Positions 9,947 through 13,703 of a DNA stretch of 64,000 bases are shown here, piece by piece (the first letter of the stretch is position 1; the number at the start of each line of letters is the position of its first letter). Source of the DNA: a virus. Lineage: Duplodnaviria; Caudoviricetes. The position numbers and the translations under genes were made by a program. The stretch covers positions 1 through 64,000 of the IMG/VR virus record IMGVR_UViG_3300030330_005435. The stretch is one strand, 5' to 3'. Below the pieces are notes generated by a model. The model ran no database searches. It saw nothing but the letters and a program-made list of their open reading frames with translations, and was not told where the DNA came from.

Positions 9947-10307
9947 CTTCAGTATTTTTCCTCAACAATTTAGCATTCCGTGTAGACTTGCGATAGGACG
10001 GCGAAATTTCTTCAAGCTGTTCTTCGTTGATAGTAGTTTCATTTTCCTGCTCAACCAAGACTTCAGTTACCTCTTCGGGCATATTTGATTTTTCTTCGTT
10101 TTCAGTTTGGCGCGCTAGTAAATCACCATATTGCGCCAATGTCAAAGCGGCGCCTTCATACTGGACCAGATTCAAAGCATGATTAGCAATCCTGTCAACT
10201 GTCCCAGGCTCTGATGGCCTGTGATAGATATCTTTAATGATTGCCAACTCTTCAGTGGCTTTTGATTTAAGTCTCTGTATTGCTGCTTGTAAAATTTCTT
10301 CTGTCAT
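9936..10307 (-). CDS. Hypothetical protein
   Basis: 123-aa ORF in operon with overlapping start/stop. Confidence 0.65.
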   Translation of the reverse strand: MTEEILQAAIQRLKSKATEELAIIKDIYHRPSEPGTVDRIANHALNLVQYEGAALTLAQYGDLLARQTENEEKSNMPEEVTEVLVEQENETTINEEQLEEISPSYRKSTRNAKLLRKNTEDES

Positions 10308-10777
10308 TTGTTAATTCCTTCTACTCTCCAAAGTTCTCCGCCTCCATCAAACACAACTACAGCGGAGGGAAACGGCGCGGAGTTACTACTGTCTCCAAAT
10401 TTAAGGCGACCCTTGACAAAGTGAATTTCGGATGCCTTCATAACATAGTTGTGCCAATATTTTGTATCTGTTCTCGCTGGGATGAGCATGACAACCTTTG
10501 TGTCAGATTTCTTAGCTTCATTATAAGCTTTCTCGATCCATTTGTCAATACCTCTTCCATACGGAGGATTGACAAAACATGTAAATCCCTCCCAATCTTT
10601 TTCTAAACCATTTTCTGCCTTTGTAAAAAAGTTGGCGCACTTCGTATTGTGTGGACTGGCGCACGGATCTAAGTCAAACGGCCCAAAGCGCCAATCAAGC
10701 TTATTGAAAAAATCTTGAGGGGTAGCCCAATTACCAGACTTCGAGCTGAACATTGTTCTTTGCGTTTCTTTATTCAT
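10304..10777 (-). CDS. Phage N6-adenine DNA methyltransferase (phage Dam family)
   Basis: WATPQ, FDLDPCA, FVNPPYG, LIPARTDTKYWH, GRLKF. Confidence 0.92.
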   Translation of the reverse strand: MNKETQRTMFSSKSGNWATPQDFFNKLDWRFGPFDLDPCASPHNTKCANFFTKAENGLEKDWEGFTCFVNPPYGRGIDKWIEKAYNEAKKSDTKVVMLIPARTDTKYWHNYVMKASEIHFVKGRLKFGDSSNSAPFPSAVVVFDGGGELWRVEGINK

Positions 10778-11931
10778 TGCTTTTCCTTAACCTCTACAAA
10801 TTCTTCTGAGTCTTCTTCCCACTGAAAGGCTCGATAGTCTCCTTGGTGCATTTGTTTTACAAACAAAATTTTAGTAATGATTGGATAACCTCCAAACTTG
10901 TAGACTTCATGCTTGTTAATTGCAGCAATCTTTGCAACAACCTTTGGGATCTCTTTTGAAATTGTTTCAGAAGAAGTAATTGAAGCAGTTAGATTGTCTC
11001 CAACACGCAACGTTGCATAGCACGGCACACGTACTGAAGATGCTGGTAAGTCGTTCTTCCAACAGTTCGTTAGCGTTTCTAAGATGCGATAGATTCGTGT
11101 TGGGCACTCAAACTTAAACACATTGCCAGTGTCGGTTGTCCAATCAACATTGGGAAAAAACCTTCTAGCATTTAAATCAATCTCTTCTTGCAATGGGAAC
11201 GAAAGTGATTGACCCCTATGTGATGCGAATGCTTTGTTGACGATTTCTCCCAAGAAGCGCTTCTTGGACGAGTGAGCAAAATCTGAACTAATGTTGTCGA
11301 TGGCCCACTGTTTTCCCCATTCAATCTGTTGTTCTTCATCCCACTGTCTTACGCTCTCAACAAACTTAGCCATTGTGTTGTACTCTGATTGAATTTGGTG
11401 TACCCAATCTTTGCTCGAATCTTCTCTTACAGAGTCGAGTCTTTTATTGCTTAGTCTTGCTAGTGAACTGCAAAACTTTAAAATTTCGTAAATCTCTGCA
11501 TCTTCATCAAAAATGACTTCTAGAAAATTAAACTTACTTTCTGCACCTTTGCTGATTGCTTTAAGATGGCCCTTGGCGCGCTTCCATCCAAATATCATAA
11601 ACAATTCGTCGTTTATGCGGGTTGCAATGGGAATTTGCGTTTGTGGTTTTTCTAAAACGTAAAATTCATCATAATAATTGACATCGCCTGCTAGAGTCGA
11701 GTTTGCTCTTGGTTGAAATGTCGGGTAGTATTCGTGGCTTTCAGAAACTAAATCGCTTAAATCGTGCTTTGTGCGTACACGAAAGTCTCTAACTAATTCA
11801 CTGCTGGTTAAAGCTGCCCATGCATCACGGATACGCGGATCAGTATTTCCTGGCAAGTCGTCATAACCGAGATCCCTTACCTTATTCTCAATTGTTGTTG
11901 TATTAATGTCTATGACATTTGATGCCTTCAT
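10774..11931 (-). CDS. Hypothetical 385-aa protein with ParB/Srx-like N-terminal motifs
   Basis: FQPR...IPI...MIFGWKR resembles the ParB-N 'QPR...PI...I.GxxR' box. Confidence 0.45.
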   Translation of the reverse strand: MKASNVIDINTTTIENKVRDLGYDDLPGNTDPRIRDAWAALTSSELVRDFRVRTKHDLSDLVSESHEYYPTFQPRANSTLAGDVNYYDEFYVLEKPQTQIPIATRINDELFMIFGWKRAKGHLKAISKGAESKFNFLEVIFDEDAEIYEILKFCSSLARLSNKRLDSVREDSSKDWVHQIQSEYNTMAKFVESVRQWDEEQQIEWGKQWAIDNISSDFAHSSKKRFLGEIVNKAFASHRGQSLSFPLQEEIDLNARRFFPNVDWTTDTGNVFKFECPTRIYRILETLTNCWKNDLPASSVRVPCYATLRVGDNLTASITSSETISKEIPKVVAKIAAINKHEVYKFGGYPIITKILFVKQMHQGDYRAFQWEEDSEEFVEVKEKQ

Positions 11932-12630
11932 TTATTCTCCTAAAATGTTTTGTTGTTTAATTCTTCTTTGTTCAAACCTTTCATCGGTTTTTTTATTAAT
12001 TTCTAATATTGTATCAATATTGTATGGTACATTGCAAGCTTTTTTTTCAAAAACCCAAAAATATGAGTGATATTTTCTTGCATGGCTTTGATTATTTTTA
12101 TGGTTGTGGCCAATGATGCGATTTTTAGCCAGCAAGACAAACATGTCTCTTGGGTAAAATCCATGAACAAGTGCGCGCTCCATGATATAACAATGAGAAA
12201 ACCAATTTTTACCAGACGAAACAGTATCCTGGCACTTAAATGCTAAGACACCTTTGTTTTTGAGAATCCTGCTAAATTCTGCTAAGCACTGGTCATACCA
12301 CCCCCACAAATCGGTTACATACCTAAATCCATGGAATCTTTTACCCATAATGCCGGTAGGTACAGCTTTGGTGTGACCCGCAACAAACGGAGGGTCAAAC
12401 ATAATGCTGGAAATACTGCTGTCATCAAACGGTAAATCATCAGCAGACGCCTTTTGTACCTCATCGTTCTTGGGAAACAAATCGTATTTATATCGAGGCT
12501 CAATAATCTCGGGAGATTTGTAAAAATTACCTTTGCTGTATGTTGGGTCTAGTTCAAACCCGTCAGGTGCGAACATCGTTTGTATGTTCTTAATGATTTC
12601 GTTTTGATCTTCTGATGTGCTCTTTATCAT
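11932..12630 (-). CDS. Amino-DNA methyltransferase (m4C or m6A)
   Basis: ELDPTYSKGNF SAM-binding motif followed by MFDPPF catalytic motif, EFSRILKNKGVLAFKCQD; start reassigned to MIKSTS. Confidence 0.85.
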   Translation of the reverse strand: MIKSTSEDQNEIIKNIQTMFAPDGFELDPTYSKGNFYKSPEIIEPRYKYDLFPKNDEVQKASADDLPFDDSSISSIMFDPPFVAGHTKAVPTGIMGKRFHGFRYVTDLWGWYDQCLAEFSRILKNKGVLAFKCQDTVSSGKNWFSHCYIMERALVHGFYPRDMFVLLAKNRIIGHNHKNNQSHARKYHSYFWVFEKKACNVPYNIDTILEINKKTDERFEQRRIKQQNILGE

Positions 12631-12635
12631 AATTA

Positions 12636-13388
12636 TCACATTACAGGGCATTTGAATTGAATCTTTTTGCCCTTGGTCCCAGTTGCATATGTCCAAGAGA
12701 GGCCAGTGCCGTATCCGCTCGCTCTACTAGTAATAGTATCAACTTGTTGTTCAATTGTGTAGGTAGAAAAAGAACTAGCATATCTTGTGTTATAATCAAC
12801 TTTAAACATAATTGTGTGATTTGCAATTCTTAAATCTTCTTCATGCTTATTGGGGCTTCCAGTTAGCGTCCAACGCACAAATTCTTTTTTTATAGGTGCA
12901 ATTTTGCTTTTTAAAATTTCACGCTCTTCAACGTTGAAGTTTTTACCAGATGCATCAGTTTGAAACTTATTCATTAACTGCAGCAATGTGGCGTCTGTTA
13001 TACCTACTTCTTCTTTGATGGTGCTAACATCAAATTCAGCCACCGCTATGTTCGCAGATGAGGATTGCTTCACAGATATTTTGATAAAAAGCCCATTAAT
13101 CGCCACACAAACATCAGTCTTTGCGGGTCCACCACTATCTCTTTTAGGTACTTCAATAATTTTAATTGTATCGACATGATCAATATTGTACACAGCGCAA
13201 GTTTGATAAAATATCTGCTCAGCCATATTGTCAGGTTGTCTATTGCAATTAAATTTGTTAGCAATGTCAGAATCGGAAAAAATCAATTCGATAAATTCTT
13301 CGTAAGCCAAGCCAGCAAGTGCTGTTTTACTGCCAACACTCCTGTCTGGATCACTGACACCGTGTTTGCCAAATAGGTTTCGCAACAT
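12636..13388 (-). CDS. MspI-family type II restriction endonuclease
   Basis: GLAYEEFI, GGPAKTD, ISVKQSS..IAVAEFDV..I...VGITD, FVRW, GYGTGLSWTYATGTKGKKIQFK align collinearly with MspI as recalled (GKLYEKYI, GGSPKTD, LNIKHSS..VSIAEYDV, GFGTGLNWTYASGSKAKKMQFK); AGGAG RBS. Confidence 0.85.
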   Translation of the reverse strand: MLRNLFGKHGVSDPDRSVGSKTALAGLAYEEFIELIFSDSDIANKFNCNRQPDNMAEQIFYQTCAVYNIDHVDTIKIIEVPKRDSGGPAKTDVCVAINGLFIKISVKQSSSANIAVAEFDVSTIKEEVGITDATLLQLMNKFQTDASGKNFNVEEREILKSKIAPIKKEFVRWTLTGSPNKHEEDLRIANHTIMFKVDYNTRYASSFSTYTIEQQVDTITSRASGYGTGLSWTYATGTKGKKIQFKCPVM

Positions 13389-13390
13389 TG

Positions 13391-13651
13391 TTATACTCCT
13401 GTGTTATTCTCGTTATTGCTAAACATCTCAAAGTTTTCTACAACCTCATCAATGTTAACATTGTCTTTGAATAGACGATATGCTTTCACAGCTGCCCTAA
13501 GTTCGTCGGTATTGAGCCATCCGTTTTCGCGATATTCAGTACGCAAGTCACGTTTTTGTTCTTTAAAAGGCTCCATTGCCTCTTCAATTGCCACCAAAGA
13601 ACGGATGTATTCTTTTACGTAGCGTTTTCTCTCTTCGTTTGTTGTAGCCAT
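13391..13651 (-). CDS. Small dsDNA-binding protein, T4 DsbA / GapR-like
   Basis: Helical pattern 'YIRSLVAIEE.MEPFKEQKRDL..EY..NG...ELRAAVK.YR'; AGGAGG RBS. Confidence 0.6.
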   Translation of the reverse strand: MATTNEERKRYVKEYIRSLVAIEEAMEPFKEQKRDLRTEYRENGWLNTDELRAAVKAYRLFKDNVNIDEVVENFEMFSNNENNTGV

Positions 13652-13674
13652 TGGGCCCTCCTGATTGTTTATAT

Positions 13675-13703
13675 AATATAACACACATATGTTCAGCAGT
13701 CAA
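13675..13703 (-). promoter_or_regulatory. Sigma70 promoter driving dsDNA-binding protein / REase / MTase operon
   Basis: TTGACT-17 nt-TATATT. Confidence 0.75.

Follow-up and report, generated by a model that had tools for sequence, protein, structure and literature searches.

The nuclease and methyltransferase genes

We analyzed a candidate restriction–modification (RM) module, consisting of a restriction endonuclease gene and an adjacent putative DNA methyltransferase gene, in a 64,000-nucleotide stretch (the window) of the tailed-phage record IMGVR_UViG_3300030330_005435. The full record, referred to here as G000, is a 74,052-bp IMG/VR virus contig estimated to be 39% complete, and all of the genes in the window lie on the minus strand. 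The two genes of the module are as follows.

12636–13388, minus strand: MspI-family Type IIP restriction endonuclease, 250 amino acids (aa), identified by Pfam, PDB sequence, PADLOC and fold
11932–12630, minus strand: small phage-type S-adenosylmethionine (SAM)-dependent amino-methyltransferase ("phMT"), 232 aa, identified by PHROG 24333, motifs and fold; proposed protective partner of the nuclease

The original prediction, made from the DNA letters alone, had read MspI motifs along the 250-aa open reading frame (ORF), and membership of the MspI family is now virtually certain. The protein matches Pfam family PF09208 (Endonuc-MspI) with 81.4 bits (cut-off 25.6) over profile positions 14–258 of 259, the MspI chain 1sa3_A with an E-value of 8e-29 over residues 5–246, and the PADLOC model REase_II at 8e-29; NCBIfam returned no match for either the nuclease or the methylase. 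The AlphaFold model of the nuclease has a predicted local distance difference test (pLDDT) score of 94.1, and its best Foldseek match is 1sa3_A, with template-modeling (TM) scores of 0.85/0.81 and a root-mean-square deviation of 2.8 Å. The second match is HinP1I (TM 0.59), and nothing else was found below an E-value of 0.001.

Counted along the alignment with 1sa3_A, residues D99, N117, and K119 of MspI correspond to D92, S105, and K107 of the phage protein. Among 19 aligned family members, bacterial ones included, the invariant positions are D92, K107, E118, and a C-terminal GTGLSWT.A...IQ.K block; the phage nuclease itself carries this block as GTGLSWTYATG...KIQFK, together with the catalytic residues D92, S105-x-K107, and E118. 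The serine at the position of MspI Asn117 had been taken as a sign of possibly altered activity, a suggestion that does not survive the alignment: the column is Ser in most of the 19 members, again including bacterial ones, with Asn and Thr occurring in single sequences, so Ser is the usual family state and says nothing about altered activity. The ratio of nonsynonymous to synonymous substitution rates (dN/dS) of 0.12 against the closest relative (88–91% identical) shows that the gene is under purifying selection, and the enzyme probably cuts CCGG. The nuclease family is small, with 37 clusters among 5.8 billion proteins, and nucleotide and protein searches of 50,697 phage records with the nuclease gave no match.

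The methylase phMT is best described by PHROG 24333, an uncharacterized family labeled "DNA methyltransferase" (1.6e-57; residues 1–198 on profile positions 32–228 of 238). Its match to PF01555 is marginal, with 28.1 bits at a cut-off of 26.7 and coverage of profile positions 3–132 of 221 only, and it does not qualify as a beta-class PF01555 enzyme, there being no full-domain match and a SAM-loop-like LDPTYSKG and the acidic D50 preceding the DPPF motif. Motif IV (FDPPF, residues 78–82) is invariant in 19 homologues, as is the order LDPTYSKG (motif I-like), D50, FDPPF. In the phMT model (pLDDT 79) these motifs fall after β1, at the end of β2, and after β4, respectively, and the resulting I-II-IV order indicates a Trm11/HemK-type arrangement rather than a beta-class one. 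Foldseek and VIA-align place the model in the class I methyltransferase (Rossmann) fold through generic matches only (Z 13–14), with Trm11, TrmN, and Trm14 among the best amino-methylases. Single-sequence and profile searches of PDB sequences with phMT returned a chance peptide and a sub-threshold Trm11 only, and no significant similarity was found to solved DNA methylases or to the SPPY enzyme of the bacterial locus L020 described below. N4-cytosine methylases tend to show an SPP(Y/F) motif IV or kinship to a characterized N4-methylcytosine (m4C) enzyme, and phMT has neither; we infer m4C chemistry for it on functional grounds and assign it to no known m4C family.

Homologues of phMT number 1963 in the protein collection searched, are 45–96% identical to it, and mostly comprise ~195 aa. 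They occur on 326 IMG/VR viral contigs, and 185,579 species genomes yielded only two matches, both on contigs of metagenome-assembled genomes, making the family essentially phage-specific. A search of the same 50,697 phage records with phMT matched nothing beyond a 636-kb phage without annotation, Pseudoalteromonas phage H103, and partial methylases of mycobacteriophages.

Two further features lie upstream of the nuclease.

13675–13703, minus strand: predicted sigma-70-type promoter (TTGACT, 17 nt, TATATT, with an upstream TG; 10 of 12 in a consensus scan)
13391–13651, minus strand: leader ORF, 86 aa, with its ATG at 13651 and the ribosome-binding site (RBS) AGGAGGG at 13662–13656; first gene past the promoter

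The promoter-like site, which the original prediction had also placed at these coordinates, was recovered by the consensus scan and begins 5 nt past the stop of the preceding gene. Its TTGAC and −10 core are invariant and in register in G000 and in four diverged relatives (L003, L006, L009, and L012) whose flanks have changed, showing that the site is conserved. Transcription of the nuclease and methylase genes probably begins here, and early transcription by the host polymerase is plausible. Past the promoter the order is the 86-aa ORF, a dUTPase in relatives, the nuclease, and the methylase. The leader ORF has no Pfam or PHROG match, and an ORF of 84–96 aa occupies the same position in all relatives examined. 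The dUTPase gene of the relatives sits between the small ORF and the nuclease (e.g., L003:4504-5004); G000 does not have it at window positions 13389–13700, and no dUTPase homologue was found in its 74 kb. As had been read from the letters, the nuclease has its own AGGAG RBS (13400–13396, 7 nt ahead of the ATG at 13388), and its TGA stop (12638–12636) is followed after 5 nt (TAATT) by the ATG (12630) of the FDPPF methylase. The latter is without a Shine-Dalgarno sequence of its own and, as the gaps between the two genes are 0–8 nt in several lineages, this arrangement suggests translational coupling.

Pairing of the nuclease and methylase across relatives

Using the nuclease alignment we found 50 loci in viral and metagenome collections, which were added to those found earlier, and scored their neighboring genes by tblastn. 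The loci fall into two clean kinds. Bacterial-type nucleases (31–42% identical to the query) stand beside a PF00145 C5 methylase, the partner that the original prediction had named as usual for an MspI-type nuclease. Marine-phage-type nucleases (36–91% identical) are followed within 0–90 nt by a phMT homologue in ~14 lineages with several gene orders; the dUTPase gene, for example, is upstream in most lineages and downstream in L026 and L048. Wherever enough sequence follows a phage-type nuclease gene, phMT is next to it in all but one lineage, and the pair persists down to 36–38% nuclease identity while the neighboring genes change. With no C5 methylase found in the 74 kb of G000, the central claim of the prediction, that the phage nuclease is paired with an amino-methylase instead of a C5 enzyme, is borne out as a matter of gene content. 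The further claim that such a pairing is non-canonical stands in part: the phage has a DPPF partner and lacks the C5 gene, but in 17 bacterial MspI-type loci the nuclease and the C5 gene are separated by a gene for a canonical beta-class PF01555 enzyme, which in L020, the locus inspected for this, has SPPY as its motif IV. These two-methylase loci, largely from gut metagenomes, include L020:180-3372, L051, L054, L055, L057, L058, L061, L066, and L071, and L020 has a helix-turn-helix (HTH) controller gene upstream.

In a maximum-likelihood phMT tree, all nuclease-linked phMTs (15 rows) share a single subclade with 4 unlinked rows, 19 in total, which has a Shimodaira–Hasegawa-like approximate likelihood ratio test value of 86, and the nuclease-link label needs 3 changes on the tree, compared with a mean of 14 when labels are shuffled. 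The pairwise identities of nuclease and methylase co-vary (Mantel r 0.79, reached by 0 of 5000 permutations). This pattern fits a single recruitment of phMT followed by co-inheritance, and descent of whole phages from a shared ancestor would give the same result. We lean toward the view that phMT is the protective partner of the nuclease.

The lineage that departs from the rule is represented by TARA scaffold_24, in which an intact nuclease gene is directly followed by a Dam gene with no phMT, leaving the Dam-type gene as the sole methylase beside the nuclease. Between G000 and its closest relative, L009 (2138-3624), synonymous divergence (dS) is 0.63 for the nuclease and ~3 (saturated) for the adjacent methylase, which suggests that the nuclease gene was recently exchanged between phages; the nuclease is more similar than the methylase in this pair only.

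CCGG sites and genomic setting

The window contains 21 CCGG sites, compared with 80.7 ± 8.6 in dinucleotide-preserving shuffles. Over the whole G000 contig there are 25 sites against 86.6 expected, an observed/expected ratio (O/E) of 0.29 that is the lowest of all 136 4-mers, the next lowest being 0.72. The counts in relatives that carry the nuclease are listed below.

G007, nuclease and phMT, 31 kb: 10 CCGG seen, 34.6 expected
G008, nuclease and phMT, 55 kb: 56 seen, 109 expected
L006, nuclease and phMT, 10.7 kb: 0 seen, 8.4 expected
L041, nuclease and phMT: 0 seen, 6.7 expected
L026, nuclease and phMT, 8 kb: 9 seen, 6.9 expected (normal)
L027, nuclease and phMT: 11 seen, 10.8 expected (normal)
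L046, nuclease and phMT: 5 seen, 5.3 expected (normal)
TARA scaffold_24, nuclease without phMT, 30,375 bp (contig extended): 0 seen, 25.8 expected

In TARA scaffold_24 no other 4-mer falls below an O/E of 0.77. Read from its sequence, this single lineage supports a nuclease that would be active on CCGG and a phMT that would let sites persist where it is present. Bacterial contigs with MspI-type systems show a comparable CCGG depletion of 0.46. Other palindromes have been erased in related marine phages, with O/E values of 0.01 for GGCC in G007 (L155-L156), 0.0 for GATC and 0.05 for GGCC in G002 (L160-L163), and 0.0 for CGCG in G005 (L164-L170).

The sites that remain in G000 are not a random sample. 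Thirteen of the 25 are GCCGGC, six are ACCGGC/GCCGGT, four are ACCGGT, and two are others. RCCGGY is thus not depleted, with 23 seen against 30.3 expected under a second-order Markov model (GCCGGC alone, 13 against 7.6), and CCGG in any other context has almost disappeared (2 seen against 56.2 expected, O/E 0.04; P 4.5e-9 in a test of the RCCGGY share). The RCCGGY share is 0.25 in pooled phages whose phMT is not linked to a nuclease. One of the spared sites lies in the module itself.

12353–12356, no strand: residual CCGG site in the context ACCGGC (RCCGGY), inside the methylase gene

These counts point to a sequence-specific agent that exempts RCCGGY in G000 rather than to a general shielding of the DNA. 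On the simplest reading, a protective methylase, phMT or another, would be specific for or prefer RCCGGY and the nuclease would cut all CCGG. It is less likely that the nuclease leaves RCCGGY uncut, since these sites are gone from the methylase-less relative as well (0 seen, 8.6 expected). It is possible that RCCGGY is protected by a second methylase encoded in the unsequenced 61% of the genome.

The module is embedded among nucleotide-salvage and replication genes, its neighborhood comprising dUTPase, adenylosuccinate synthase, a guanosine monophosphate (GMP) reductase/inosine monophosphate dehydrogenase (IMPDH)-type enzyme, thioredoxin, ribonucleotide reductase, and DnaE; this setting favors a role in the recycling of host DNA. 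Replication and nucleotide genes found in G000 itself are DnaE, two ClpP, GroEL, the GMP reductase/IMPDH-type enzyme, and thioredoxin. Ten late genes scanned with PHROG included those for a tail sheath, a major head protein, and adaptor proteins, making the phage a myovirus, and none of the ten bears on a phage nucleus. The original prediction had called the phage lytic, which is likely, as this myovirus encodes its own replisome and no integrase was found in 74 kb, a span that covers 39% of the genome. The same 74 kb hold no second PF01555 match. Replacement of cytosine in the phage DNA was considered and dropped: the gene labeled "DCD" that lies nearby in relatives encodes an ordinary dUTPase, and neither a thymidylate-synthase-like nor a deoxycytidine monophosphate (dCMP)-hydroxymethylase-like gene was found in the 74 kb.

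Downstream of phMT the same gene string continues with two more genes.

10774–11931, minus strand: 385-aa ORF that abuts the methylase stop and lies between two methylase genes in the same transcription unit; its membership of the system is uncertain
10304–10777, minus strand: phage Dam-type N6-adenine methyltransferase, 157 aa (PF05869, NPPY)

The 385-aa ORF has no Pfam, PHROG, NCBIfam, or PADLOC match; a ParB/sulfiredoxin-like similarity (protein atlas score 0.90, TM below 0.5) is a weak lead only, and homologues of the ORF come after phMT in L002/L027 and L034. The Dam-type protein matches PF05869 with 118.5 bits and falls below the NCBIfam equivalog cut-off (90 vs 97). It cannot protect CCGG, because the site has no adenine.

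Proposed role and comparison with known systems

We propose that the locus is a virus-borne Type IIP RM module, acting by cytosine-N4 chemistry, in the early DNA-metabolism block of a marine myovirus, and we give this whole chain a probability of about 0.5. In this scheme, host RNA polymerase would start at 13703–13675 and transcribe the leader ORF, nuclease, and methylase as one unit. The nuclease, a monomeric MspI-type PD-(D/E)XK enzyme, would cut unmodified CCGG, and the methylase, made by coupled translation, would methylate an exocyclic amino group; since CCGG contains no adenine, that group would be the N4 of a site cytosine. Phage DNA would enter the cell pre-modified and be re-modified after replication. 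With few CCGG sites in its genome, the phage DNA would survive while host DNA, and perhaps that of competing phages, is cut; the host would be shut down, and the products could feed the neighboring nucleotide-salvage genes. In G000 the protection would hold for RCCGGY only, the other CCGG sites having been purged. The data show the family of the nuclease, the conservation of the gene pair and of the promoter, purifying selection, and the CCGG counts; from these we infer that CCGG is cleaved, that the methylase makes m4C, that protection is limited to RCCGGY, and that host DNA is degraded. MspI reportedly does not cut when the outer C of its site carries m4C (PMC4936722, citing Butkus 1987).

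Several observations weigh against this proposal. Amino-methylases beside MspI-type nucleases are not unique to phages, given the PF01555 enzymes of the bacterial loci. No DNA methylase stands out in the fold searches with phMT, and with generic matches only, m4C and m6A (N6-methyladenine) chemistry cannot be told apart from its sequence or fold. Enzymes that make m6A tend to have DPPF as this motif, and those that make m4C tend to have SPPY/F. The phMT family is mainly an orphan one: 75 of the 80 best phMT viral contigs have no MspI-type gene in the 5-kb flanks, and for five of these 75 (8–127 kb) there is none anywhere on the contig. The no-methylase, no-sites case is a single lineage, and its phMT-bearing sister L006 is site-free too. 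Three contigs of the nuclease-linked phMT subclade without an MspI-type gene nevertheless avoid CCGG (O/E 0.06 in G005, 0.45 in G002, and 0.52 in G004), which is odd if phMT protects CCGG; lying within the linked subclade, they may have possessed the nuclease until recently, or they might carry it in unsequenced DNA. RCCGGY sparing was looked for in the relatives and is absent there, being confined to G000, and is thus not a property of the whole phMT family. As the G000 contig is 39% of a genome, a further methylase may be encoded in the other 61%. Lastly, the near-total loss of other palindromes in related phages indicates that host-driven avoidance can be total and could explain the loss of CCGG with no part played by the nuclease of the phage, so that this loss alone proves neither the specificity of the nuclease nor protection by phMT.

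The rival explanations differ in how much of this they absorb. One that we regard as unlikely holds that phMT is not the partner of the nuclease at all and is instead an orphan anti-restriction amino-methylase, probably an m6A enzyme with an unrelated target, that is a neighbor through inherited gene order; self-protection would then come mainly from having few sites, plus perhaps timing, compartmentation, or an RCCGGY methylase encoded elsewhere. The mostly unlinked occurrence of the family and its two matches among species genomes are as this explanation would have them, and so are the DPPF motif and the lack of a DNA-methylase-specific fold match, the lineage that runs the nuclease without phMT, the near absence of non-RCCGGY CCGG from G000 despite phMT, and the purging of CCGG by phages with unlinked phMT. 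It fares poorly with the near-zero-spacing adjacency that is kept at 36–38% nuclease identity amid changing neighbors, with the clustering of linked phMTs in the tree and their co-divergence with the nuclease, and with the coexistence of an intact nuclease and either normal CCGG density (L026 and L046) or 23 RCCGGY sites (G000). An intact nuclease beside surviving sites means that some sequence-specific protection must exist, and no other cytosine methylase was seen in the 74 kb. We consider it improbable that the genes form a real CCGG RM pair whose role is to exclude co-infecting phages or to persist as a selfish, addictive cassette rather than to degrade the host genome. The RM system of marseillevirus does not degrade the DNA of its host, and competitors are its presumed target (PMC7253447), the dS mismatch between G000 and L009 hints at separate histories or exchange, and hosts with CCGG systems of their own, one reading of the avoidance seen in nuclease-less relatives, would have DNA that is already protected; against this, the salvage and replication setting and the early-type promoter fit host-DNA recycling as in chloroviruses. 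More improbable still is a nuclease that is no longer a CCGG restriction enzyme, having a new specificity or serving as a nickase or in DNA processing, with avoidance due wholly to CCGG restriction by the host. Related phages without an MspI-type gene in 36–127 kb do strongly avoid CCGG and other 4-bp palindromes, and the depletion on bacterial MspI-system contigs can be read the same way, but the catalytic and C-terminal blocks are invariant, dN/dS is low, the predicted model is nearly superposable on the MspI–DNA complex structure, and the genomes in which CCGG alone stands out among the 4-mers are exactly G000 and the methylase-less relative.

Returning to the proposed RM module, a more ambitious and doubtful extension is that the phage-only family with a ~195-aa core makes m4C at CCGG-type sites and was recruited once as the antidote to an MspI-type nuclease with which a clade of marine myoviruses shreds host DNA, that one lineage erased all of its CCGG and dropped the antidote, and that the G000 antidote covers RCCGGY only, the other 96% of expected CCGG having been removed. 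What is new here is the pairing with an uncharacterized phage-only amino-methylase, the methylase-less and site-free lineage, and the purge that spares RCCGGY; the nuclease itself adds one more member to a family already known. If correct, the proposal would assign a function to a very large uncharacterized phage methylase family (~2000 proteins), make available as tools both a novel methyltransferase of very small size that is m4C-forming (or RCCGGY-specific) and a new series of CCGG isoschizomers, and offer a clean evolutionary case of a genome trading methylation for site elimination. Should the G000 antidote cover RCCGGY only, the genome would also be a natural record of a mismatch in specificity between nuclease and methylase.

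Among known systems, the MspI system of Moraxella sp. (R.MspI, 1sa3; M.MspI, a C5 methylase acting on the outer C) shares with the phage module the nuclease family and fold, alignable from end to end, the catalytic Asp and Lys, the C-terminal block, and an adjacent methylase gene. It differs in that the phage partner is a small DPPF amino-methylase rather than a PF00145 enzyme, the carrier is a tailed phage whose own genome is depleted of sites, and Ser replaces Asn117, as in most family members. Bacterial MspI-family loci (L020, L051, L054, L055, L066, and others) likewise have an amino-methylase immediately after the nuclease. Theirs is canonical for PF01555 (162 bits), and no similarity between it and phMT could be detected; these loci carry in addition a C5 methylase and, in some, an HTH controller/C-protein, and the phage has neither. 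Bacteriophage T4 destroys host DNA with endonucleases II and IV, from which its own cytosine-substituted DNA is exempt, all of its cytosines being replaced; in contrast, no thymidylate-synthase-like or dCMP-hydroxymethylase-like gene was found in G000.

Complete RM systems are "nearly absent" from phages (9 in 831 genomes), while solitary methylases are many (PMC4176335). Most phMT homologues resemble these orphan, anti-restriction methyltransferases in being solitary in diverse phages, and the family is set apart by the one subclade tied to a nuclease and by being an uncharacterized ~195-aa core with motif I before motif IV (Trm11-like). The GATC RM system of marseillevirus is similar in its clade-conserved adjacent pair, purifying selection, and transcription of the nuclease first (PMC7253447), and differs in its site and enzyme families; host DNA is not degraded there, and the exclusion of competitors has been proposed. 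Chloroviruses package restriction enzymes with which the DNA of the host is degraded and recycled (PMC7019647). Their RM systems (e.g., CviAII) likewise belong to a lytic virus and consist of an adjacent nuclease–methylase pair with a short site, with viral DNA methylated and host DNA degraded early and recycled. Unlike the module described here, they operate in eukaryotic algal hosts with other enzyme families and 5-methylcytosine or m6A modification. Their endonucleases are packaged in the virion. Site avoidance is prominent in the phage. If our proposal is correct, a restriction enzyme would serve abundant marine myoviruses, as yet uncultured, as an offensive weapon of the kind that chloroviruses have.

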